Below are positions 6,707-20,128 of a DNA stretch of 36,137 nucleotides, in pieces. Origin of the DNA: an uncultured Bacteroidales bacterium (GTDB lineage Bacteria; Bacteroidota; Bacteroidia; Bacteroidales; ML635J-15); contig CAZOHR010000003.1 in NCBI GenBank assembly GCA_964579045.1, forward strand, positions 1 to 36,137. The letters are read 5' to 3'. The number at the start of each line of letters is the position of its first letter. Positions within the stretch are counted from its first letter, which is position 1. Made by a program: the position numbers and the translations under genes. The notes below the pieces were generated by a model. The model worked only from the letters and a program-made list of their open reading frames with translations. It was not told where the DNA came from and made no database searches.

Positions 6707-6737
6707 ATGCACTCAAAGGAAGAAAAGAGGTGATAAA

Positions 6738-6917
6738 ATGACAGAAAATTCCAAATTGTATAGAGCTGACGAAGTGGCGGAGATTTTAAACTTCAAGCCG
6801 AAAACAATAAAAAAATGGATAAAAGAGGGATTTGTTCAAGCGGTAAAAATTGGTAGCAGTTGGAGAATCGAACAAAGCGAAGTAGACAGATTAAAGAGAG
6901 GGAGTGTACGCAGATGA
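6738..6917 (+). CDS. HTH_17 / excisionase-MerR-like DNA-binding protein
   Basis: LYRADEVAEILNFKPKTIKKWIKEGFVQAVKIGSSWRI is a typical helix-turn-helix_17 signature. RBS AAGAGGTG lies upstream of ATG 6738. Confidence 0.7.
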   Translation: MTENSKLYRADEVAEILNFKPKTIKKWIKEGFVQAVKIGSSWRIEQSEVDRLKRGSVRR

Positions 6918-9199
6918 ATTTTGACAATATACCGCAGGAACTAAAAGACCTCAAACAATGGGTATGCCATACACCCGATAAGTTACCTATGAACGCAAAA
7001 ACAGGGAAAAATGCACAGAGTAATAACCCCGCTACTTGGAGTGATTATGAAACCGCTATCAAAGGTATGGAAAAGTTCAAATTTGAGGGTATTGGGTTTA
7101 TGTTTGCAAATGGGTATTTTGGAGTGGACTTAGACCATTGCATTAACAATACGGATTTCATCGAGGAATTTGTAGAAACGCTTGATTCGTATGCTGAAAT
7201 TAGCAAGTCGGGCGAGGGAATACATATTATATGCAAAGGAATGTTACCACAAGGGAAAAGGCGAAAAGATAATGTGGAAATGTATGACTCGGGTAGATAT
7301 TTTTGTATGACGGGAAATAATTGGGGAATTGCAGAGATTAAAGATTGTACCGAAACTATAAAAATACTCCACAATAAATATCTTTCGGAACCAAAACCGA
7401 TGATGATGGGTAGGAACGTACAAAAAATTTATATGAGTGATGATGATGTTATTTCAAAAGCTCGACTATCTAAAAACGGAATGTATTTCGAGGCACTTTA
7501 TAGAGGTAATTGGCAAGGAGCATATACCAGTCAATCAGAGGCGGATTTAGCGTTCTGCAATATGCTTGCATTTTGGACACAAAAGGAATCGGAACAGATT
7601 GATAGAATCTTTCGTTCAAGCGGATTGTTTCGTACTAAATGGGATTCATTGAGAAGTGGAGTCACTTATGGGAATTCCACAATATCGAAAGCAGTTCAAG
7701 GTTGCACGGAAGTTTATGGGGTAGAGATGCAAGGAAAAGAACAAGATTTGGTGGTAGGTGTGTTTGGAAAGAAAACCAAGGTGCCGAAGAAAAACTACGA
7801 GCCAACAGATACAGGAAACGCAAATAGATTGTCCGACAAATACAGAGGGCAATTAAAATTCTCGTATCAGAATAAAATGTGGTATTATTGGACAGGCAAG
7901 GTTTGGCAGGAAGATTTAACTGGCGAATCAAAGAAGATGGCTGACGAAGTTATAATTGATATGAAAAAAGATGCTTTTGATATTGAGGACGAAGAAAAAC
8001 GAGAAATGGCACTAAAATGGGTGGCAAGGACAAGCAATAGCAAGAGTAAAGAAAATATGTTAAAAGAATCGCAACATTTGACTGATATTCCTGTTTTGAG
8101 TAGTGAATTCGATACATACCACGATTATTTGAATTGTCAAAACGGAGTTGTGAATTTGCGTAATGGAGAACTTATTCCGCACAATTCAGTATATATGCAA
8201 AGTAAAATTAGCCTTGCTGAATACTCCAAAGATAAAGAACCTACACAATGGTTGAAGTTTCTTGATGATGTAACGGGCGGAGATAAGGAATTGCAACTAT
8301 TCTTACAAAAAGCGGTTGGGTATAGCTTGACTGGTTCCACAAAGGAGCAATGCGTATTCTTCTTATATGGAAGTGGTAATAACGGAAAATCTACTTTCTT
8401 AGATATTATAACCGATTTAGCAGGAAGTTATTCCTGCAACGTACAACCCGAAACTGTAATGGTAAAAAATCCAATGCAAAGTGGTGGAGCAAATACTGAT
8501 ATTGCAAGATTAAGAGGTTCACGATTTGTTACTACGATAGAACCGAACGAGAGCGTAAAGATAAACGAGGGGTTACTGAAACAACTAACGGGCGGAGATA
8601 AAGTTACTGCTCGATTCCTCTATGGCAGAGAATTTGAATTTATGCCTGAGTTTAAGTTGTGGCTTGGAACGAATCACAAACCAATTATTCGTGGAACTGA
8701 TATAGGAATTTGGCGGAGGATTCGTATGATTCCGTTTACAGTAAATATTCCAAAGGATAAAGTGGACAAAAATTTGAAATTCAAGTTACGAAAAGAATTA
8801 CCATACATATTAGATTGGGCGGTGCAAGGTTGTTTATTATGGCAAAAAGAGGGTTTGGAATTGCCCGCAAGCGTACAAAAAGCCACAGAGGAATATAAGA
8901 GTGAAATGGATTTACTCGGTAGATTTTGCGACGATTGTGTGGAATTGAATTATTTAAGTAGAGAAAAAGCATCGGATTTGTACGAAGTATATATTGGGTG
9001 GGCAAAAGAAAATAACGAATATGAAATGAGTTCCACAAAGTTTTCAAAAGAACTTGCTAAAAAATACCCCGAAAAAGTTAGAATGGCTGATGGAGTATTT
9101 TTCAAGAATACTAAAATAAGTACACTTGGAATGAGATTTAAGACAAAAGACCACTATCACGAGTATAAACAGTATAAAGCTCGACATAATGGAGATTGA
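6914..9199 (+). CDS. bifunctional primase-polymerase / D5-type (SF3) primase-helicase
   Basis: The N-terminal prim-pol shows FGVDLDHC, GEGIHIICKG and YFCMTGN. A PriCT-like segment is SQSEADLAFCNMLAFWT. The C-terminal P-loop is FFLYGSGNNGKSTF. ATG 6914 overlaps the upstream stop (ATGA). Confidence 0.9.
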   Translation: MNFDNIPQELKDLKQWVCHTPDKLPMNAKTGKNAQSNNPATWSDYETAIKGMEKFKFEGIGFMFANGYFGVDLDHCINNTDFIEEFVETLDSYAEISKSGEGIHIICKGMLPQGKRRKDNVEMYDSGRYFCMTGNNWGIAEIKDCTETIKILHNKYLSEPKPMMMGRNVQKIYMSDDDVISKARLSKNGMYFEALYRGNWQGAYTSQSEADLAFCNMLAFWTQKESEQIDRIFRSSGLFRTKWDSLRSGVTYGNSTISKAVQGCTEVYGVEMQGKEQDLVVGVFGKKTKVPKKNYEPTDTGNANRLSDKYRGQLKFSYQNKMWYYWTGKVWQEDLTGESKKMADEVIIDMKKDAFDIEDEEKREMALKWVARTSNSKSKENMLKESQHLTDIPVLSSEFDTYHDYLNCQNGVVNLRNGELIPHNSVYMQSKISLAEYSKDKEPTQWLKFLDDVTGGDKELQLFLQKAVGYSLTGSTKEQCVFFLYGSGNNGKSTFLDIITDLAGSYSCNVQPETVMVKNPMQSGGANTDIARLRGSRFVTTIEPNESVKINEGLLKQLTGGDKVTARFLYGREFEFMPEFKLWLGTNHKPIIRGTDIGIWRRIRMIPFTVNIPKDKVDKNLKFKLRKELPYILDWAVQGCLLWQKEGLELPASVQKATEEYKSEMDLLGRFCDDCVELNYLSREKASDLYEVYIGWAKENNEYEMSSTKFSKELAKKYPEKVRMADGVFFKNTKISTLGMRFKTKDHYHEYKQYKARHNGD

Positions 9200-9470: not shown

Positions 9471-10739
9471 ATGTCAAAAGAAATGTTGCAACAAAGCGAA
9501 GTAAATATGTTAATATCATTATTCAATGCAAAAAAAGGAACTTGCTACAAATTTTCCGCACAAAAGAACTTAGACGGAATCAAAAGAGCTTGTGAAGTTT
9601 TGAACTATGACTTTCCAACTTTGAAAAAAGCGATTAACGATTTTGCTGGTAATGATTTTGATGTATTCATTAAACAATTACCAATACTAAGTGAATTCGG
9701 AACTCCTACTCCTGCTCCTGCTCCTGCTACTCCAACACCTATTACTCCAATACAACCAACTAATTTATCCGATGCCCAACAAACCGCACAAAATTCACTT
9801 AGCCTGCTTGAACAAGCGATGGCACAAATTTTTATTCAGCAAAAAGGTGACGAACTTGCAAAGGGAGTTCTCGAAAATGTAGAAAAACAAGTAACTGAAT
9901 TTATTTATAAAACTTATGGACCTATACAAAGAAAGATTGAAATACAATTTGGCGAAAAGAAAGCTCAACTTGAAGGAGTATTGCACGATAAATTCGACGA
10001 GGTACTTGCTTTCGTATCTGCAAATGAACCAGTATTCTTATGTGGACCTGCTGGTTCGGGTAAAAATGTATTATGTCAACAAATAGCACAAACACTCGAA
10101 CTTGATTTCTACTTCTCTAACGCAGTAACGCAGGAATACAAAATCACGGGATTCACAGATGCGATGGGTATTTTTCACGAATCGCAATTCTACAAAGCGT
10201 TTAAAAATGGCGGTGTATTTATGCTTGACGAAATGGACGCATCAATACCCGAAGTTCTAATAATACTTAATGCGGCAATAGCTAACCGTTACTTTGACTT
10301 TCCTGCTCCGATAGGATATGTCGAGGCACATAAAGACTTCCGTGTAATATCCGCAGGAAATACATTTGGACACGGAGCCTCATACCAATACGTTGGCAGA
10401 AATCAACTTGATATGGCAAGCCTTGACAGATTTGCGGTAGTTGAAATTTCATATAGTGAAGAAATCGAGAAAAGTTGTGCACAGGGAGATGAAGAACTCA
10501 CACAATTCATTAGACAATTTAGACAAGCAAGTGAAAAAAGCGGAATCAATACTATTACATCATACAGAGCTATTACAAGAATTTCAAAAATGGTTCCTGC
10601 TTTGGGTATTCAAAAAACACTTAAAACTTGTTTAACAAAATCTCTCGAACGAGATGATTTGAAAATGATTATTTCTAACATCAACTGCAACAATAAATAT
10701 GGACAGGCACTTAGAAAATTAAGTGAGGTGCATAACTAA
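9471..10739 (+). CDS. AAA_5 (MoxR/CobS/dynein-related) ATPase with N-terminal unknown domain and Pro/Thr/Ala linker
   Basis: Walker A is FLCGPAGSGKN and Walker B is VFMLDEMD. VISAGN and SLDRF (sensor/arginine region) are also present. The linker is TPTPAPAPATPTPITPIQPT. RBS AAAAAGGAG is upstream. Confidence 0.85.
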   Translation: MSKEMLQQSEVNMLISLFNAKKGTCYKFSAQKNLDGIKRACEVLNYDFPTLKKAINDFAGNDFDVFIKQLPILSEFGTPTPAPAPATPTPITPIQPTNLSDAQQTAQNSLSLLEQAMAQIFIQQKGDELAKGVLENVEKQVTEFIYKTYGPIQRKIEIQFGEKKAQLEGVLHDKFDEVLAFVSANEPVFLCGPAGSGKNVLCQQIAQTLELDFYFSNAVTQEYKITGFTDAMGIFHESQFYKAFKNGGVFMLDEMDASIPEVLIILNAAIANRYFDFPAPIGYVEAHKDFRVISAGNTFGHGASYQYVGRNQLDMASLDRFAVVEISYSEEIEKSCAQGDEELTQFIRQFRQASEKSGINTITSYRAITRISKMVPALGIQKTLKTCLTKSLERDDLKMIISNINCNNKYGQALRKLSEVHN

Positions 10740-11596
10740 TGGAAACTCGAAAAGTTAAAATGAAATGTCAAAGTCACACCGCAAATGTAGAACTTTATAA
10801 TTCAGCGAATGAATTAGTTGATACTTGCTTGAAGCGTACTTACAAAGGTGGTAGCTTTCACGGAGATACATTTAGCGGAAGTAGAGATAAAGGCGGCAGA
10901 AAATGGAATGGCGGACTTACTGCAAAACAATCACTTGAAACTCTTGCAAATGGTTGGAGCGAGAATGTGGAAAAGCTTACCAAGAAAATGAATTCAGTAA
11001 AACAACTTGCAGATGGAAAACGAAATACTTTTAGAAACGATGTTGTTGGATATTCTCCGATAGTACCGCTTGCAATAATGGGAGTTCCTACATCGATGAT
11101 AAGCTCAACTCAAAAGAAAATCAAGTCGAAAATAATTGACATTTACTACGACACAACAGTTTCTTGTGGAAATTCCGCAAAACAAATACTTGACAACGGA
11201 ATGAAACTTATGGAAACGGTAGTGAATCTTGAAAATAGTGGATATAGAGTTAGACTATCCGCTATGCAGAGCTACTCAGTTAGTGATAGTTCAGACATAT
11301 TGATAGTTAGAGTAAAAAATGAAAACCAACCACTTGATATAAAACGAGTAATGTTTCCAATTATGCACCCCGCTATGTTTAGAGTAATTGGATTTGGGTG
11401 GTACGAAAGATGTCCGACCGCTGAATATAGAAATGGATATGGCAGAGGACTTAGTTACAATATGAGCGAAAAAGAATTCGACATATTTGTAAAAGAACTT
11501 TTTGGAAAATCCGCCTGTGCATTAAGCGGAAAATTTATACAAGACAAGTCACAAGAATATATTGAAAAAACATTAAAAGGAGAGTACATCAAATGA
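10739..11596 (+). CDS. hypothetical protein, translationally coupled partner of the AAA_5 ATPase
   Basis: ATG 10739 overlaps the stop TAA (TAATG). The ORF is 285 aa. I recognise no motif. Confidence 0.65.
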   Translation: METRKVKMKCQSHTANVELYNSANELVDTCLKRTYKGGSFHGDTFSGSRDKGGRKWNGGLTAKQSLETLANGWSENVEKLTKKMNSVKQLADGKRNTFRNDVVGYSPIVPLAIMGVPTSMISSTQKKIKSKIIDIYYDTTVSCGNSAKQILDNGMKLMETVVNLENSGYRVRLSAMQSYSVSDSSDILIVRVKNENQPLDIKRVMFPIMHPAMFRVIGFGWYERCPTAEYRNGYGRGLSYNMSEKEFDIFVKELFGKSACALSGKFIQDKSQEYIEKTLKGEYIK

Positions 11597-13235: not shown

Positions 13236-13757
13236 ATGCGACAGAAAAATTTAGGTTTGATGTTTTATTCTCTATTAGTGACATTCGTATTCGTGACTTA
13301 CATATTATTTAATTGCAATGAACCGCAGGAAGTATTCGAGCGACAAGATTCTCCTATGCAGGCGGATTTGGTAATACCCGACTCGCAGATTTATCAAAAA
13401 GTAGAAAAAACGCTTGTAGCTCCAAAATTCACTTCATATAGCAACCCCGACAAACAAATGATGGCGAAAGTTTTATTTAAGGAATCACGAGGAGAACCCG
13501 ATGCAGGGCAGAGAGCAATAGTGAAACTCATATTGAATCGGAGAGATAGTAAGATTTTTGGTGACTCGATTCAAGATATACTTAATGCAAGAGGTCAATT
13601 TGAAATGTCGAACACATATACCGCAAAAGAAATGTCAAATGTCGAATATGTAATAAGCAACGGATTTGATTTGCCACAGGAATTTTGTTACTTTGGAACT
13701 TGGAGATTCAGGACAGGAGAATATAAGAAGATAGGCAACCATTATTTTATGAGATAG
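13236..13757 (+). CDS. SleB-like cell-wall hydrolase (Hydrolase_2) with N-terminal membrane anchor/signal
   Basis: MMAKVLFKESRGEPDAGQRAIVKLILNR...ILNARGQFE matches the SleB/CwlJ catalytic-domain pattern. The N-terminal hydrophobic helix is LGLMFYSLLVTFVFVTYILF. Confidence 0.75.
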   Translation: MRQKNLGLMFYSLLVTFVFVTYILFNCNEPQEVFERQDSPMQADLVIPDSQIYQKVEKTLVAPKFTSYSNPDKQMMAKVLFKESRGEPDAGQRAIVKLILNRRDSKIFGDSIQDILNARGQFEMSNTYTAKEMSNVEYVISNGFDLPQEFCYFGTWRFRTGEYKKIGNHYFMR

Positions 13758-13771
13758 GAGTGCATAACGAA

Positions 13772-14050
13772 ATGCGAAAATCAGAAGACATAAAAAGATT
13801 GATAACGCTACCTTGCGATATAGGTGGAGATATATTTTGGGTAGATGCAGATACTAAAACTGTAAGATGTGAAGAAAAGGGAATCAGAGGAATATTAGTG
13901 AGAAAAGATAAGTTTTTGATTGAGGACAAGACGGGCACTGTTGATGAAATCGGAACAACGTATTGCCATTTGACAAGAGAGAGTGCGGAAAAAGAATTAG
14001 TTGGATTCCTGCAAAAACAACAAGAAGAATTCGAGGGGAGTGGTATATAG
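13772..14050 (+). CDS. hypothetical protein
   Basis: The ORF spans 13760-14050. The GTG at 13760 abuts AGGAG, so ATG 13772 is more plausible. Confidence 0.5.
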   Translation: MRKSEDIKRLITLPCDIGGDIFWVDADTKTVRCEEKGIRGILVRKDKFLIEDKTGTVDEIGTTYCHLTRESAEKELVGFLQKQQEEFEGSGI

Positions 14051-14364
14051 TGAGAGTGGCAAAAGGAGAATTACAAAATAAAGATAAAATATGTGAGATT
14101 GATGGTTGCGAAAATGTGGTATGCTCGAAAAACTTATGCAACAAACACTATAAACGAAAACGACGGGCAGAGGGAAAAATCAAATCAAGAGCAAAGAGAT
14201 TCAATAAAGATTTAGCAAGAGTTGTGAGATGCCGATATTGTGTATGGAGAAATACAGAAATGTGTTTTCGTTCATATCCTGCTGACAATTTAATTGCAGG
14301 TTACGAAATTGGAATGACCCTTGATGATGATTATTGCAGTGAGGGGGCGACTGAAATTGATTAA
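14050..14364 (+). CDS. Cys-rich zinc-finger protein (CxxxxC...CxxH motif as seen in phage HNH-associated modules)
   Basis: GTG 14050 has GAGGGGAG upstream. ICEIDGCENVVCSKNLCNKHYKRKRR is followed by a second Cys cluster, RCRYCVWRNTEMC. Confidence 0.5.
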   Translation: MRVAKGELQNKDKICEIDGCENVVCSKNLCNKHYKRKRRAEGKIKSRAKRFNKDLARVVRCRYCVWRNTEMCFRSYPADNLIAGYEIGMTLDDDYCSEGATEID

Positions 14365-14440
14365 CGAAAAAGTGTTTCCGATTATACTAATGGTATTAAA
14401 TTTATGTGCAAGTTAAGTTAAAAAACATAAATAATTATAA

Positions 14441-14475
14441 AGTCAAGCGTTTAAAATACGCTTGACTTTTTGATT
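14441..14475 (+). terminator. intrinsic terminator
   Basis: The perfect 10-bp stem AGTCAAGCGT / ACGCTTGACT has a 7-nt loop and is followed by TTTTTGATTTTT. Confidence 0.85.
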
Positions 14476-14490
14476 TTTCAAGACTATAAT
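14462..14490 (+). promoter_or_regulatory. consensus sigma-A promoter embedded in terminator 3' arm
   Basis: TTGACT (14462-14467), exactly 17 nt, then TATAAT (14485-14490). Confidence 0.7.
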
Positions 14491-14532
14491 TGTTCTTGAA
14501 TGAATATATTTTATTAAAAAGGTGGTGAATTT

Positions 14533-14856
14533 ATGCGAAAACTAAAAGAATTCGCAGAGAAATATCCGTGGACATTTTCTAAAACTTATGCAAGAACTGC
14601 TCCGCACGAATATGTAGTTAGGGAGAATGTGGCAGATGATGAATCGTTTGATGAAATTGTAATGCTTATTCGTGAAAAGGGATTCAAGTGTAATTTTTGG
14701 AAAGCGGAACATATCTACTTAGAGTTAGATGGAAAATACTATTGGACTATGGGAAGTCCACTTGAAGAAACAATAATTATCAACAGGTGCGAATCAAAAG
14801 ACTATGTTATTTTCAACATAAAAGACGGAAAGGTAGGAATGAAATATGCGAGGTAA
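14533..14856 (+). CDS. hypothetical conserved phage protein, first gene of candidate modification operon
   Basis: RBS AAAAGGTGGTG is upstream. The motif WTFSKTYARTAPHEYVV...YYWTMG resembles a recurrent phage family; this is from memory and unverified. Confidence 0.65.
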   Translation: MRKLKEFAEKYPWTFSKTYARTAPHEYVVRENVADDESFDEIVMLIREKGFKCNFWKAEHIYLELDGKYYWTMGSPLEETIIINRCESKDYVIFNIKDGKVGMKYAR

Positions 14857-15058
14857 GAGAGTGCGAGAATTTCACAAAATGGAAAGACAAATTGCTGAAT
14901 TGAAAGGAGATTTACAGAAAATCGATAGCACTAATATTGTTATCCACAACAACGTATTCGGACTTTGCGAGCAACTCAATGAAATTAAGAGAAAGCGGGT
15001 GAGTTATAGACTATGGCAATTAATTACAAAGAGAATACCGTTTTTGACGAAGCATTAG
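14846..15058 (+). CDS. small coiled-coil hypothetical protein (uncertain)
   Basis: The ORF overlaps both neighbours (11 nt upstream, 46 nt downstream). An alternative start is ATG 14879. Confidence 0.35.
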   Translation: MRGKRVREFHKMERQIAELKGDLQKIDSTNIVIHNNVFGLCEQLNEIKRKRVSYRLWQLITKRIPFLTKH

Positions 15059-16152
15059 AACGCATTGAGTTCGTTTTTCAGAATCACGATGATGTAATTG
15101 TTTCAATGAGTGGTGGCAAGGATTCTACTGTATTATTCGAACTTGCTTATAGAGTCGCAAAGAAGTTGGACAGGTTGCCCTTAAAGGTATTTTGGTTAGA
15201 CCAAGAGGCAGAGTGGCAAGCAACTGTTGACTATATGCAAGGGATATTTGGTAGGGAATTTGTAACTCCACTTTGGTTTCAGATTCCTTTTGATTTTACG
15301 AATAGTTTATCGCACGAGAATAACTATTTGAAAATTTGGGATATTGAGAAAAAAGATAACTGGATTCATAGTCAAAGTGAAATTTCTATCAAGGAAAATA
15401 TCACTAAATATAATCGGTTCCACGATTTAGTTAATTATTTACCGAGTGCTTATGCAGAGGGAAAAGAAACTGCATTACTTGTGGGTATGAGAATATCAGA
15501 GAGCTTTAATAGGCGGACAACCATTATGAATTCGAGTTCAAGTTACAAAGGAATCACTTGGAGTAAAATGCCACGAGGAGCTTGTAGAACTTTTTGGCCT
15601 ATATATGATTTTACCGACGATGATATTTGGACTGCTATTGCTAAGAACGATTGGGAGTATAATAAAATCTATGACTTTCAGTATAACTGGGGAGTGGCTA
15701 AAAAAGGTATGCGTGTATCCGCATTGATTCACGAAACATCGTGGCACGCAATAGAAATGTTGCAGGAATTCGAATACAAAACATATAATAAATTCATTAA
15801 ACGAATAGGTGGAGTTAGTTGTTTTAATCATTTTGGAAAAGACATTATCGTTAGAGAATTACCGTTTGCTTTTAAGGATTGGAAAGAATATCGTGACTAT
15901 TTATTGGTGAATTTGGTAAAACCCGAATATTGGGATTTATTCAAACGAAGATGGAGCAAGCAAGAGGGCGAAAAATGGCACAGAATCCACACAAAAGAAG
16001 TTTTGATAAATGACATCGATGGAACTCTAAATGCCAACCACTCGTCAACGGTAAGGCTGAAAAACAAGAAAGAAGTGGGAAACAATAAATATTTCAAGCA
16101 CGATAGAGAACAATTTGATGAATATATGAAAGGCGGAGCAGAAAATGATTAA
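15013..16152 (+). CDS. PAPS-reductase-family PP-loop ATP pyrophosphatase, IbrA-like
   Basis: The PP-loop SGGKDS lies at nt 15109-15126 within VIVSMSGGKDSTVLFELAY. VGMRISES is also present. A long C-terminal extension follows, as in DUF3440-type IbrA proteins. Confidence 0.85.
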   Translation: MAINYKENTVFDEALERIEFVFQNHDDVIVSMSGGKDSTVLFELAYRVAKKLDRLPLKVFWLDQEAEWQATVDYMQGIFGREFVTPLWFQIPFDFTNSLSHENNYLKIWDIEKKDNWIHSQSEISIKENITKYNRFHDLVNYLPSAYAEGKETALLVGMRISESFNRRTTIMNSSSSYKGITWSKMPRGACRTFWPIYDFTDDDIWTAIAKNDWEYNKIYDFQYNWGVAKKGMRVSALIHETSWHAIEMLQEFEYKTYNKFIKRIGGVSCFNHFGKDIIVRELPFAFKDWKEYRDYLLVNLVKPEYWDLFKRRWSKQEGEKWHRIHTKEVLINDIDGTLNANHSSTVRLKNKKEVGNNKYFKHDREQFDEYMKGGAEND

Positions 16153-16720
16153 AGACCAACCGATTGATGAAGTAGTGTGGGTGCCAATAGAAAAGATTTT
16201 TGCTAACGATTATAACCCGAATTCTGTTGCTACAATGGAGATGAAACTCCTTTATGTGTCAGTAAAAAATGATGGGTACACTCAACCAGTAGTAACTATT
16301 TATGATTTCAAGCGAGATAGGTACACTATTGTAGATGGGTTCCACAGATATTCTATTATGAAAAGATACAAAGATATTTATGATTCTTGCGAGGGGAAAT
16401 TGCCTTGCGTAGTATTGAAGAATAAAACTGAAAATGATAGAATGGCGGCAACGGTTAGACATAACAGAGCGAGAGGAAAGCACTCCGTAAACGGAATGTC
16501 GAATATTGTAATGGAAATGCTTTTGAATGGTGCAAGTGACTTGCAAGTGTGCAACGAATTAGGGTTAGAGGCAGAGGAACTTATTCGTTTAAAACATATA
16601 ACAGGATATGCCAAGCTTTATATGAATAACACCTACACCAAAGCAAAAATGAGTGAAAAACAAGTAGAAGAAAAGAGGAAATACGAAGATGCGTTACATA
16701 ATGAGGGCGATAAAAAGTAG
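16145..16720 (+). CDS. ParB/Srx-fold protein, IbrB-like
   Basis: VPIEKIFANDYNPNS...GYTQPVV...IVDGFHRY is a ParB N-terminal domain signature. It overlaps the IbrA-like gene by 8 nt. Confidence 0.8.
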   Translation: MIKDQPIDEVVWVPIEKIFANDYNPNSVATMEMKLLYVSVKNDGYTQPVVTIYDFKRDRYTIVDGFHRYSIMKRYKDIYDSCEGKLPCVVLKNKTENDRMAATVRHNRARGKHSVNGMSNIVMEMLLNGASDLQVCNELGLEAEELIRLKHITGYAKLYMNNTYTKAKMSEKQVEEKRKYEDALHNEGDKK

Positions 16721-17231
16721 GGAGCATTTTGTGGACGAGGTAAAAGCAGAAATTCCCGAATTAGAAGTACATTATGACGATACAGGAAGTGCGATGGAAT
16801 CATTGAAATATACCTTAGAACATATTATTGGTGACGATGCTTGCGTGTTATTCGAAGATGATATTGAGTTATGCGATGATTTTAAAAACAAGATAGAAAG
16901 TGTTATAAATGAATTGCCCGATACTTTAATCAGTTTCTTTTCGTTATCAAAGAAAAACGTAGTTCCATATTGGAAACGAGGGAAAGAATTTTGTATGATG
17001 CAATGCGTATATTTGCCAAAAGGATTCGCAAGCAAATTATTATCTACTTATGACGATTGGAGAGCTACACAGGGAGTTAGTAATTTGCAAGCAACAGATT
17101 TTTGGATTGGGTATGCGTGGAAAATTGAATATTTCGTATATTGCCCAAGTTTGGTGCAACATAGAGTGTGTGTTTCTGCTATTGATAAGCGGAGAAGTAG
17201 TAAAAGACAATCGATAACATTTAAGAAGTAA
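16689..17231 (+). CDS. GT-A-like glycosyltransferase candidate (family-25-like), function uncertain
   Basis: ACVLFEDDIELCDDF resembles the acidic EDD/DxD loop of GT25-type enzymes, and the size is about 180 aa. Alternative start is ATG 16701. It overlaps the upstream gene. Confidence 0.5.
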   Translation: MRYIMRAIKSREHFVDEVKAEIPELEVHYDDTGSAMESLKYTLEHIIGDDACVLFEDDIELCDDFKNKIESVINELPDTLISFFSLSKKNVVPYWKRGKEFCMMQCVYLPKGFASKLLSTYDDWRATQGVSNLQATDFWIGYAWKIEYFVYCPSLVQHRVCVSAIDKRRSSKRQSITFKK

Positions 17232-17270
17232 AATTCAATAAAAATCAAACAAAAGGGAGAATGTAAAATA

Positions 17271-17939
17271 ATGGAAAATATACAGATAGTTTACAAACAG
17301 ATTAGCGAGATAAAACCATACATTAGGAATCCGAGGCAGAACAAGAAAACGATTGAGATGCTCGTAAAATTGATTCCGCAAGTAGGATTCAATGTTCCGT
17401 TGGTAATTGATAAAAACGGAGTTATCGTCAAAGGACATTCAAGATTTGTGGCAGGAATTCAATTAGGTATGACTGAATTACCTTGCATTGTTTCTGATGC
17501 TGACGAAGAAAGTATTAAGCTCGATAGAATCGCTGATAATAGAGTGAGTGAATTTTCAGAGTGGGTGAATGAACCATTGATGCACGAGCTTGATATGTTG
17601 ACTATGGACTTCTCTTTCTTGGAATTCCCTATGCCGAAAGTGGAATTACCGCAATTTAAAGAAGAATTCGCTGAATTCGACGAAGATTTAGGTGGAGATG
17701 ATGAAAAACCCGAAGATTTAGAAGAACGCAAAAAGCGTTTTCTTGAAATGCAGGAGCAACAAAGGAAAGCAGGAAACGGAGTTCAAATTGCTACTGAACA
17801 AGGATTGCAAAAAGCATTAGAGAAACAAGGAGCAGAGGCAGTAGAACCGCCTAAATATTATAAAATAGTATGCGAAGATTGTGGACACGTTCAATTTGTA
17901 AAAGCCGAAGATGTTTGGGAATCAGAGGAACGAGTTTAA
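17271..17939 (+). CDS. ParB-like nuclease-domain protein with acidic C-terminal region and CxxC element
   Basis: ISEIKPYIRNPRQN...VPLVIDKNGVIVKGHSRFVAGIQLG is the ParBc type usually fused to N6_N4 methylases. An acidic tract is EFAEFDEDLGGDDEKPEDLEE. VCEDCGH is also present. Confidence 0.8.
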   Translation: MENIQIVYKQISEIKPYIRNPRQNKKTIEMLVKLIPQVGFNVPLVIDKNGVIVKGHSRFVAGIQLGMTELPCIVSDADEESIKLDRIADNRVSEFSEWVNEPLMHELDMLTMDFSFLEFPMPKVELPQFKEEFAEFDEDLGGDDEKPEDLEERKKRFLEMQEQQRKAGNGVQIATEQGLQKALEKQGAEAVEPPKYYKIVCEDCGHVQFVKAEDVWESEERV

Positions 17940-17961
17940 TGGCTCGATAGGAGTGATTATT

Positions 17962-18507
17962 TTGTATAATTCCGCACTTGATACACACAATAAGAGAGAT
18001 GGTTCCGTTAACAATTATCATAACGGAACCGCTTTCGTACATAACATTTTAAACGGAACAGATGAACGTTTTTTGTACGCAGATGCCATTTATTCAGAGA
18101 TTTCGTGGCAAAAAGGGTTCGAAAAGTTTATGAAAAGAGCAAATGTAGAGGATTTCCGCACTTATAAAGAGTATATTGATTCAATTATTGCAGTTGTAAA
18201 ATGGCTTGGAGTTCCTACAATTCTGATATGTGGAAAGACAGGAATCACAGGTTATGATTGGAAACACGAAACATATTTTAGTGCCGTGAAATGCAAGGCA
18301 GTTGCTTATGGATTCAACTGTAAAAAAGTGAAATTTGATACTACTGATTTGTATATGGACTATCTTGCGGAAACGAAAGAAACTCTACTTGATTTTTGTT
18401 GCGGATATGGGAATATATTGAGGTTTTGCGATTTACACGACACTAAATTCATTTGTTCGGATATAAACGAGGATTGCATAAATTATATAAAAGGAGTTGA
18501 GGCTTAA
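17962..18507 (+). CDS. methyltransferase-like protein with permuted (beta-class) order and degenerate motifs
   Basis: TTG 17962 has AGGAG 8 nt upstream. A motif IV-like DAIY is at nt 18082-18093 (FLYADAIYSE). A motif I-like DFCCGYG is at nt 18391-18411, near the C-terminus. Confidence 0.5.
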   Translation: MYNSALDTHNKRDGSVNNYHNGTAFVHNILNGTDERFLYADAIYSEISWQKGFEKFMKRANVEDFRTYKEYIDSIIAVVKWLGVPTILICGKTGITGYDWKHETYFSAVKCKAVAYGFNCKKVKFDTTDLYMDYLAETKETLLDFCCGYGNILRFCDLHDTKFICSDINEDCINYIKGVEA

Positions 18508-18860
18508 TGGCAAGACCAAAGATAATTATTGACGAAAATCAATTTGAGAATTTATGCAACATTCATTGTACGTTAGACGAGATTGCAGGGTTCTTTAATT
18601 GTTCCGCCGATACGATTGAAAACTGGTGTAAAAGGGAATACGGAGAGCGTTTTTCGGACGTCTATAAAAAGAAGTCCGCCAAAGGTAAAATATCATTGAG
18701 AAGAACACAATTTAAAATGGCTGAAAAGAATGTAGCTATGGCAATATGGTTAGGCAAACAATGGCTCGGACAAAAGGAGAATGACGAGAATAACGGAAAC
18801 AATTTCGGAATGTTGCCCGAATTATTACAATACTTCAAAGATAATGCGAGGAAGAAATAA
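18507..18860 (+). CDS. terS: terminase small subunit
   Basis: HTH-like N-terminus is CTLDEIAGFFNCSADTIENWCKR, followed by LRRTQFKMAEKNVAMAIWLGKQWLGQKE. It lies directly upstream of TerL with an ATGA/TAATG overlap. Confidence 0.8.
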   Translation: MARPKIIIDENQFENLCNIHCTLDEIAGFFNCSADTIENWCKREYGERFSDVYKKKSAKGKISLRRTQFKMAEKNVAMAIWLGKQWLGQKENDENNGNNFGMLPELLQYFKDNARKK

Positions 18861-20128
18861 TGCGTAAAGGTATTGCTAAGGTGGAAAAGAAAGAAGAAAT
18901 TGGTTTTACCTCAAAACAAATGGAGTTCTTGCAAGCAGATAGTAACCGAATCAATTTCCTAAGTGGAAGTGTTAGAAGTGGAAAGACCTATGTTAGTTTA
19001 GTGAAATGGGCGTTATGGGTTGCAAGTCAACCCGAGGATATGGAGTTTATAATGGTTGGTAAGACTATTACATCTCTAAAAAGAAATTGCCTTAGTTTAT
19101 TAGAAAAATTTGTTGGAACGGATAATTTCCATTATTCAAGTTCTAACAAATTTGGAACATTATTTGGTAGGAGAGTATATTTAGAGGGAGCGAATGACGA
19201 GCGAAGTGAGAATAAAATTCGAGGTATGACATTATTTGGAGCTTATTGTGATGAAGTTACTTTATACCCCGAATCGTTTTTTAGTATGCTACTCACTCGT
19301 TTATCATTTGACGATGCTCGACTATGGGCAACTTGCAACCCCGACAATCCAAGTCACTATATCAAAATGAAATACATAGACAATGAAGAACTTGATATGA
19401 AAGTGTGGAACTTTATTCTGACTGATAATACATATCTTGGGGCAAAGTTTATTGAGAACATTTCAAAGGAATTTACAGGAGTATTTTATAACAGATTCAT
19501 ATTAGGACAATGGGTTAGAGCAGAGGGTATTATATATCGAGAATTCGCCGACCAAGTTGATTCATATTTGATAGATGAAATACCTAAGGATTTAATTCAA
19601 GTCACGATAGGAGTCGATTTTGGGGGCAACGCAAGCGCTACGACATTTGTTTGCTCGGGTATTACACAGAATTACAGAGATGTTGTTATTTTAGAGAACA
19701 AATATATCAAAGAGGAACTAACACCGATTAAGTTGGAGAATCTTTTTGTTGAATTTGTAAAGATATGTATTTCAAAGTATGGCAGGGTAAACTATATCTA
19801 TGTTGATAGTGCGGAGCAGATATTGAAACACGGAATGGTTCGCAGAGTTCAACAAGAGAGATTACCAGTTCAAGTTAAAAATGCTTATAAGATGCAGATA
19901 ACAGATAGAATCAAATTAGTTATTAGACTGCAAGCAAGCGGAAGATTCAAAGTGATGCGACATTGTAAGCAAGTGATAAAAGCACTATGCGACGCAGTTT
20001 GGGATTCCACAAAGCAAACTGACGAGAGGCTTGATGATATGACAAGCGACATTGATACACTTGATGCACTTGAATACTCTATTGAGCGAAGTTATAAAAA
20101 TCTAACAGATTATATTGTGAGGAATTAA
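18860..20128 (+). CDS. terL: terminase large subunit (PBSX/Terminase_3-like)
   Basis: Walker A is LSGSVRSGKTY and Walker B-like is GAYCDEV. ATCNPD and the C-terminal nuclease acidic residues (VDFG, YVDSAE, DDMTSDIDTLDALEY) are present. Confidence 0.9.
   Translation: MRKGIAKVEKKEEIGFTSKQMEFLQADSNRINFLSGSVRSGKTYVSLVKWALWVASQPEDMEFIMVGKTITSLKRNCLSLLEKFVGTDNFHYSSSNKFGTLFGRRVYLEGANDERSENKIRGMTLFGAYCDEVTLYPESFFSMLLTRLSFDDARLWATCNPDNPSHYIKMKYIDNEELDMKVWNFILTDNTYLGAKFIENISKEFTGVFYNRFILGQWVRAEGIIYREFADQVDSYLIDEIPKDLIQVTIGVDFGGNASATTFVCSGITQNYRDVVILENKYIKEELTPIKLENLFVEFVKICISKYGRVNYIYVDSAEQILKHGMVRRVQQERLPVQVKNAYKMQITDRIKLVIRLQASGRFKVMRHCKQVIKALCDAVWDSTKQTDERLDDMTSDIDTLDALEYSIERSYKNLTDYIVRN

Follow-up and report, generated by a model that had tools for sequence, protein, structure and literature searches.

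A candidate DNA-modification module built on an IbrA/IbrB-like pair and placed ahead of the terminase genes in a Bacteroidales phage-like genome

The closest described counterparts of the gene module considered here, which occupies positions 14533 to 18507 (+ strand) of a 36,137-nucleotide (nt) contig of an uncultured Bacteroidales bacterium (CAZOHR010000003.1; the whole stretch is hereafter called the window), are the IbrA/IbrB pairs of Escherichia coli prophage islands. In these, as in the window, a PP-loop protein with a PAPS_reduct (phosphoadenosine phosphosulfate reductase) domain and a DUF3440-like tail is coupled to a ParB/Srx-fold protein of about 190 amino acids (aa). For IbrAB, the sole reported phenotype is the activation of eib genes in E. 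coli ECOR-9. Phage copies of the pair are mostly labeled in the literature as sulfur auxiliary metabolic genes (AMGs) or partition proteins. The window proteins share 27 to 32% (IbrA) and 43 to 52% (IbrB) identity with annotated pairs of Streptococcus, Flavobacterium, Microbacterium, and E. coli phages, and the pair as such is already known. Unlike the known pairs, that of the window is accompanied by a second ParB, a 107-aa domain, and a transferase cassette and is fixed before the terminase, a context that is undescribed in the papers searched.

The same combination of a ParB-fold protein with a PP-loop enzyme of the PAPS-reductase family is found in DndB/DndC (and in SspD and BrxP), with DNA as the target in the case of Dnd. 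A further point of comparison is TilS, the PP-loop enzyme of lysidine formation in tRNA, which adenylates a base carbonyl, after which an amine displaces AMP. A cysteine-free PP-loop IbrA neighboring an arginine decarboxylase, as seen in relatives, would fit such chemistry by analogy only: the similarity of IbrA to TilS_N (E = 0.0028) is confined to the PP-loop, and TilS acts on tRNA, unlike the proposed IbrA. Among phage systems, a vibriophage fusion of a PAPS-reductase domain to Dam, together with a neighboring gene, lets the phage escape host Dnd (Piel et al.; bioRxiv 10.1101/2021.05.05.442762); it resembles our module in linking a PAPS-reductase-family domain to a DNA methyltransferase (MTase) but differs in being a single protein that has no ParB partner and is not terminase linked. 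Phage ParB folds are also often fused to DNA methylases, and the N6_N4_Mtase fusions have been surveyed (PMC12704722). The second ParB gene of the window followed by a beta-class MTase-family gene looks like a split version of such fusions (phrog_498); relatives keep the DPPY motif, whereas the window MTase-like half has E-I-S-W in its place and an IbrAB module surrounds the pair. Finally, in 7-deazaguanine DNA modification, the ParB-like ATPase DpdB is needed for the action of the base-modifying enzyme DpdA on DNA (PMC12839542). Thus, ParB-fold partners of DNA-modifying enzymes are documented in both DndB with DndC and DpdB with DpdA, and the latter offers a precedent for IbrB helping IbrA, although DpdA is a TGT transglycosylase unrelated to the PP-loop enzyme IbrA.

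Against this background, we read the window locus as a candidate packaging-proximal, post-replicative, adenylation-based DNA-modification module built on the IbrA/IbrB pair with plug-in decorating enzymes, a reading to which we give a probability of about 45%.

The IbrA-IbrB-ParB2 core and its genomic contexts

A megablast search with the island against 50,697 phage records recovered no close cultured relative at the DNA level; hence, all comparisons were made at the protein level. IbrA and IbrB matched 223 and 230 phage records, respectively, from phages of Flavobacterium, Mycobacterium, Streptococcus, Arthrobacter, Bacillus, Microbacterium, and other hosts. The survey set comprised 78 nonredundant IbrA loci from IMG/VR and from genomes, the latter being prophages in metagenome-assembled genomes of gut and rumen Oscillospiraceae/Ruminococcaceae, and the presence of the IbrB partner across the loci was checked by tblastn. 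An IbrB-like open reading frame (ORF) adjoins IbrA in 77 of the 78, the exception being a truncated contig. The loci occur in three groups. (i) The ParB2 class (33 loci, including the window) carries a second ParB, with terL at most 5 kb downstream in 25 of the 33. (ii) The SNF2 class (22 loci) has an SNF2-related helicase just upstream (Pfam, E = 9e-13), with terL at most 5 kb downstream in a single locus. (iii) The remaining 23 loci have neither partner, and some of them carry another superfamily 2 (SF2) helicase. ParB2 and SNF2 never co-occur in the 78 loci. Within the last group, five loci (L049, L060, L063, L090, and L091) have IbrA-IbrB followed by a conserved protein of about 140 aa (family f13), which has no Pfam or PHROG match, and a ResIII/DEAD helicase; these may represent a third context class.

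Conservation within the module is highest for IbrB, at 74 to 84% identity to close relatives, against 52 to 64% for IbrA and 37 to 53% for ParB2. The conserved core consists of IbrA, IbrB, and ParB2, directly upstream of the terminase, while the glycosyltransferase (GT), the MTase-like protein, and the 107-aa protein form a variable cassette. An earlier note on the same DNA, made from its letters alone, had envisaged five enzymes acting in one pathway and proposed a survey of gene neighborhoods; the survey bears out co-conservation of the core trio, but the other genes come and go, so that the single pathway does not hold. The same note knew of no system with this gene combination, which is correct in that the combination is undescribed, but it is not unique, as it recurs in 33 of the 78 loci. 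The placement before the terminase stands and extends to many unrelated phages: at least four families are represented among the terminases downstream of the module (Terminase_6/3, phrog_38, GpA with a phrog_57 terS, and GP3_package), and mycobacteriophage Akoma shows the same order, with gp1 (ParB), gp4 (PAPS-reductase-like), gp5 (ParB), and gp6 (terminase). The linear records of the Microbacterium phages Hendrix and Leaf begin with the IbrB gene (gene 1) and end with the IbrA-like gene, which places the pair across the genome ends.

This linkage also raises the alternative that the module serves packaging or late-gene control with no covalent chemistry: the ParB folds would bind near pac/cos or spread, organizing the terminase substrate or activating late transcription, with IbrA as a nucleoside-triphosphate-dependent accessory and the GT and MTase-like genes as unrelated morons at a permissive site. 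Such a role is in keeping with the place that the module keeps just ahead of terS/terL in phages with unrelated terminases, with IbrB being the best-conserved protein, and with the known tendency of accessory genes to gather before terS. We nevertheless consider it unlikely. The invariant PP-loop catalytic site (see below) speaks for enzymatic chemistry, neither the SNF2 class nor the Streptococcus phage examples are found near the terminase, and no parS-like or pac-like repeat array stood out in the 13.9- to 19.2-kb region. Moreover, accessory transferase genes within 5 kb are specific to the ParB2 class (25 of 33 loci versus 1 of 22 in the SNF2 class and 1 of 23 in the neither-class, i.e., 2 of 45), and all three homologues of the window GT that were taken from the protein database and examined sit in IbrA/IbrB/ParB/terminase loci, which would be unexpected for random morons.

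The IbrA-like protein (15013 to 16152, + strand; 379 aa) is a PP-loop ATP pyrophosphatase with a PAPS_reduct domain and a DUF3440-like C terminus. Of the two Pfam families that the earlier note expected, PF01507 (PAPS_reduct) is matched well above its cutoff (E = 2.7e-15; 57 versus 22.5 bits), whereas DUF3440 stays below it (E = 0.0049; 17 versus 25 bits). Among PHROG families, phrog_2302 matches over residues 5 to 327 (E = 3e-79) and phrog_424 weakly (E = 7e-13). A single-sequence search of the PDB with IbrA recovered no match, and a single-sequence search for homologues of the MTase-like protein recovered only one; family alignments were therefore used. In an alignment of nine diverse IbrA proteins, the SGGKDS PP-loop, which had already been picked out from the letters, is invariant, as are D63, E65, G158, R160, E163, S164, R167, and several Asp and Tyr residues, including the motif G.R..ES..R. 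The alignment contains no conserved cysteine.

The last observation bears on the usual annotation. A role of IbrA in auxiliary sulfur metabolism, as a true PAPS reductase, or in Dnd-like phosphorothioation is suggested by the Pfam name PAPS_reduct, by the frequent AMG annotation in the literature, and by partial PADLOC/NCBIfam matches to DndC, BrxP, and SspD, but we find it scarcely credible. With no cysteine conserved in the family, neither the catalytic C-terminal Cys of CysH nor the DndC-type Cys/Fe-S ligands are available. The scores against the CysH models TIGR00434 (18.9 versus 165 bits) and PRK02090 (22 versus 154 bits) and the DndC model TIGR03183 (25 versus 290 bits) are far below the cutoffs, and the DndC matches span residues 145 to 217 only. 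Unlike DndB/DndC, the window pair is accompanied by no dndA, dndD, or dndE gene, cysteine desulfurase, or sulfite-pathway gene among the window ORFs scanned. On these grounds, assimilatory PAPS/APS (adenosine phosphosulfate) reductase (CysH) and DndC were both rejected as identities of IbrA, and PAPS reduction and Dnd-type sulfur insertion by this protein appear very unlikely. The Dnd analogy of the earlier note thus fails on its chemistry. Additional PAPS_reduct genes occur in some loci: L113, which already has IbrA/IbrB, carries a second, shorter one (363 aa; 6724 to 7815) between terS and terL, and L033 and L078 have additional IbrA-like ORFs.

The IbrB-like protein (16145 to 16720, + strand; 191 aa) overlaps IbrA by 8 nt, indicating translational coupling, and matches ParB_N weakly in Pfam (E = 1.2e-4) but phrog_2159 strongly (E = 1e-72). 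Together with the phrog_2302 match of IbrA and the near-constant partnership of the two genes, this bears out the earlier identification of the pair as IbrA/IbrB. ParB2 (17271 to 17939, + strand; 222 aa), the core gene that defines the ParB2 class, matches ParB_N (E = 5e-4), phrog_620 (E = 3e-38), and the N-terminal part of the ParB-MTase family phrog_498 (E = 7e-28). The box-II arginine is kept in both proteins, with DGFHR of IbrB aligning to GERR of Noc box II and GHSR of ParB2 to GERR of Spo0J. By their sequences, both are predicted ParB/Srx folds, as the earlier note had it. A canonical plasmid-type partition ParB was ruled out for them (TIGR00180, 22 versus 58 bits); a scan of the window ORFs revealed no parA, and no parS or helix-turn-helix (HTH) was found.

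The variable cassette and the 107-aa domain

The GT of the window (16689 to 17231, + strand; 180 aa) gives weak sequence signals (Glyco_transf_25 in Pfam, E = 0.0028; phrog_854, E = 9e-7). Since its profile reached only E = 0.077 against PDB sequences, the fold was assigned from an AlphaFold2 (AF2) model built with 42 homologues (pLDDT 94), which in Foldseek matches the GT-A enzymes Mimivirus R655 (E = 1.5e-6; TMq 0.66), POMGnT1, GnT-I, STIV A197, and COLGALT1. D57, D58, and D137 are invariant among the homologues, and H158 is nearly so. The protein is thus a predicted GT-A fold (GT25-like) glycosyltransferase, and the earlier description of it as GT-A-like is supported by the modeled fold and the invariant DD. 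In the three homologue loci mentioned above, PvlArgDC (pyruvoyl arginine decarboxylase) lies beside IbrA in two, and a second PAPS_reduct gene lies between terS and terL in one. In L110, a gene for a ThiF/E1-like adenylyltransferase (1421 to 2221), i.e., another adenylating enzyme, is found about 3 kb upstream of a GT-IbrA-PvlArgDC-IbrB run.

The last gene of the cassette (17962 to 18507, + strand) encodes a protein resembling the beta-class (permuted) DNA amino-methyltransferases, whose family profile matches DpnA, MboIIA, RsrI, and CcrM (E = 2e-7 to 9e-5). Its TTG start at 17962, preceded by GGAG, agrees with the N termini of the homologues and is to be preferred to the ATG at 17911, as the earlier note had chosen. 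Motif I is invariant in the family and intact in the window protein. Motif IV is DPPY/W in 6 of the 12 aligned members and grades in the others through EPPW and ELPY, with E-I-S-W in the window protein, in line with the degenerate motifs remarked on before.

Across relatives, the cassette holds homologues of the window GT and three further GT-like families, MTase-family members with and without DPPY, some of the DPPY versions lying beside ParB2, and genes for PvlArgDC (E = 6.8e-37), radical SAM (S-adenosylmethionine) proteins, a UDP-glucose-dehydrogenase-like protein, class-I SAM methylases, and SET proteins. There are also FkbH-like genes with an acyl-carrier-protein-like partner and GNAT-like ORFs, although the FkbH-like and GNAT-like assignments are tentative, having no supporting Pfam match. 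Taken as a whole, this cassette looks like a hypermodification toolbox.

The first gene of the module (14533 to 14856, + strand) encodes a 107-aa protein that has no Pfam, PHROG, or NCBIfam match and appears to be a new IbrAB-associated domain lacking a Pfam model. Its family comprises 4,001 clusters at 50% identity, with P24, H25, Y27, Y70, W71, and N84 invariant (in the motifs PH.Y, YW, and NR). The AF2 model (pLDDT 95) matched no PDB fold (best E, 0.11), and its sole match in BFVD was an unnamed homologue; hence, no function could be transferred. The domain is directly upstream of IbrA in 12 to 13 of the 33 ParB2-class loci. It is fused to class-I SAM methyltransferases in 15 of 49 long members and elsewhere to GNAT, SET, PD-(D/E)XK, SMC-like, and HTH modules, with the GNAT and SET fusions again lying within ParB/IbrA/IbrB/terL loci. 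These fusions suggest that it may be an adaptor bringing transferases to the IbrAB substrate. It is also seen in two or three tandem copies per protein and in proteins of 470 to 540 aa (among P0222 to P0366), and one MTase fusion (P0066) comes from a bacterial chromosome of 2.8 Mb, in a locus (L101) that lacks a neighboring IbrAB.

The contents of the cassette permit another alternative, in which the substrate is not DNA. The module would modify a protein (of the virion, the terminase, or the host nucleoid) or a small amine or glycan; IbrA would adenylate a carboxylate or phosphate, the GT, MTase, GNAT, and SET enzymes would decorate lysine-type amines or sugars, and PvlArgDC would do no more than provide a polyamine that condenses DNA. 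Among GT-A structures, those nearest to the window GT indeed belong to protein or glycan glycosyltransferases, including the GT25 collagen hydroxylysine galactosyltransferase. Likewise, no nucleic-acid-binding fold could be detected in the 107-aa domain, SET and GNAT are among its fusion partners, with a gene for a saccharopine-dehydrogenase-like protein in the vicinity, and PvlArgDC recurs. We regard this alternative as quite unlikely, because the two ParB folds, the SNF2 alternative, the beta-class DNA-MTase family, and the PD-(D/E)XK, SMC, and HTH fusions all indicate DNA, and because an amine previously joined to DNA would be an equally conceivable target of SET, GNAT, and MTase enzymes.

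A proposed route of DNA modification

The same neighbors (the two ParB folds, the SNF2 helicases of the sister class, the beta-class DNA-MTase family, and the fusions of the 107-aa domain to PD-(D/E)XK, SMC-like, and HTH modules) lead us to favor DNA as the substrate, and the DNA-directed role that the earlier note had put forward is retained as a candidate. Because IbrA has no conserved cysteine, any chemistry must be sulfur free. PP-loop enzymes act by adenylation on tRNA bases, sulfate, or FMN. By extension, the ParB-fold proteins would hold on to phage DNA, by binding or clamping, and recruit IbrA to it, and IbrA would use ATP to adenylate a DNA oxygen, which could belong to a base carbonyl or to a phosphate, backbone or terminal. 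A non-sulfur nucleophile would then displace AMP. The cassette would supply or decorate the resulting adduct: in the window, the GT-A enzyme would contribute a sugar, the divergent MTase-like protein of the beta class might add a methyl or some other group, and the 107-aa domain would serve as the adaptor. The product would be made while the DNA is readied for packaging and would shield it against restriction-type defenses of the host. In its most specific form, IbrA would be a ParB-clamp-loaded, DNA-directed adenylating enzyme that starts a sulfur-free, post-replicative, packaging-coupled hypermodification of a new kind, directed at canonical bases or at the backbone. The adduct would then be diversified from phage to phage by exchangeable cassettes, in which PvlArgDC would provide agmatine, GT-A enzymes would provide sugars, and MTase, SET, or GNAT domains recruited by the 107-aa domain would add methyl or acetyl groups. 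We advance this detailed version only tentatively and hold it to be doubtful as it stands.

Several observations weigh against a DNA-modification module. In the literature searched, IbrAB, YbdNM, and DUF3440 appear as annotations only, with no biochemical activity, and no modified base or backbone is reported for any IbrAB phage. E. coli K-12 ybdNM, a possibly related pair annotated as PAPS-reductase/DUF3440 and ParB-like, is chromosomal and regulated with citrate genes. Enzymes of a pre-replicative route, such as a hydroxymethylase or TET, are absent among the window ORFs. The SNF2 class, as described above, is not near the terminase, and seven Oscillospiraceae prophages carry the IbrA-IbrB-ParB2 trio alone. 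The nearest structures to the GT act on proteins or glycans, and the SET and GNAT fusions of the 107-aa domain could mean a protein or amine substrate. Lastly, the window MTase-like protein, having lost DPPY, may be inactive.

A different function in the phage-host conflict was also considered, namely, that IbrA (as an adenylyltransferase or pyrophosphatase) and the ParB/Srx proteins (as NTPases) form an anti-defense system that depletes or alters a nucleoside triphosphate or second messenger of host immunity. ParB/Srx folds bind ATP, CTP, or GTP, a role in limiting nucleotide pools has been suggested for them, and PAPS-reductase genes occur in Aca-regulated candidate anti-defense operons. However, such a function leaves the glycosyl- and methyltransferase cassette, the terminase linkage, and the helicase partners unexplained, and co-transcription with late genes would be poor timing against early immunity; we judge it distinctly improbable.

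Gene layout around the module and its implications

The window resembles the 36-kb genome of a gut or rumen phage, with early and middle genes followed by the island and then by terminase, portal, head, and tail genes. Upstream of the island are genes for an amidase (465 to 1175), AAA_24, an SF2 helicase, a primase-polymerase, an AAA_5 (MoxR/CobS-like) ATPase paired with a DUF7192 protein (9471 to 11596), a cell-wall hydrolase, and an HNH-like ORF. Upstream of IbrA, the DUF7192 family also occurs in L001, L003, and L005, joined by AAA_5 in L003, and L107 has the full pair; the two may travel with the module. The cell-wall hydrolase (Hydrolase_2, SleB-like; 13236 to 13757) has a hydrophobic N terminus and lies among the early/middle genes, far from the amidase. 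An island that is horizontally acquired and compositionally distinct was ruled out, its G+C content (0.34 to 0.37) being that of the rest of the window.

The HNH-like ORF (13963 to 14364; TTG start; phrog_5351, E = 8e-6) shares 88 nt with the 96-aa ORF ahead of it, the two spanning 13760 to 14364, and stops shortly upstream of an intrinsic-terminator-like hairpin (14439 to 14469, + strand; 12-bp stem, 7-nt loop, and T-run), which closes the upstream early/HNH block. An HNH gene adjoining the terminase genes is typical of cos-type packaging; hence, the phage genome ends might lie within 14364 to 14533, in conflict with the headful packaging assumed in the earlier note. A sigma-70-type promoter follows (14462 to 14490, + strand; TTGACT-17-TATAAT), the consensus promoter already recognized in that note, which scores 11/12 and is the best match across the 6 kb from 13.5 to 19.5 kb. 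Its -35 hexamer sits within the 3' arm of the hairpin, so that termination and initiation signals physically overlap (14439 to 14490).

A strong Shine-Dalgarno sequence, AGGTGGTGA, precedes the ATG at 14533. From there, all the island ORFs are on the + strand and tightly packed, with overlaps or gaps of at most 39 nt, and the unit reads into the genes for the terminase small subunit (terS; 18507 to 18860, + strand; phrog_309, E = 1e-8; 56 to 68% identity to relatives) and large subunit (terL; 18860 to 20128, + strand; Terminase_6N, Terminase_3C, and phrog_2, E = 4e-44). This layout agrees with the single operon into terS proposed earlier, and every gene described then was found in its place. 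The small coiled-coil ORF of that description (14846 to 15058, + strand; 70 aa) is present and overlaps both neighbors, but it matches only phrog_5553 (E = 0.0014) and has no counterpart in relatives, where the 14533-type gene abuts IbrA; for this reason, it is perhaps not a real gene.

The comparative pattern has consequences beyond the window. For the IbrA/IbrB pairs of hundreds of cultured phages and many prophages, the usual labels of PAPS reductase and sulfur AMG, which the absence of a conserved cysteine renders doubtful, and of ParB partition protein are misleading. In their place stands a testable pattern: an obligatory ParB partner, the alternatives of a second ParB with the terminase or of SNF2, a cassette limited to the terminase-linked class, and a domain family of about 4,000 clusters. 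If DNA is the substrate, the module would constitute a new and easily diversified route of phage DNA modification acting on canonical DNA, with a bearing on restriction evasion, host range in phage therapy, and sequencing artifacts in gut and rumen viromes, and it would for the first time open the IbrAB/YbdNM proteins, long unexplained, to biochemical study.

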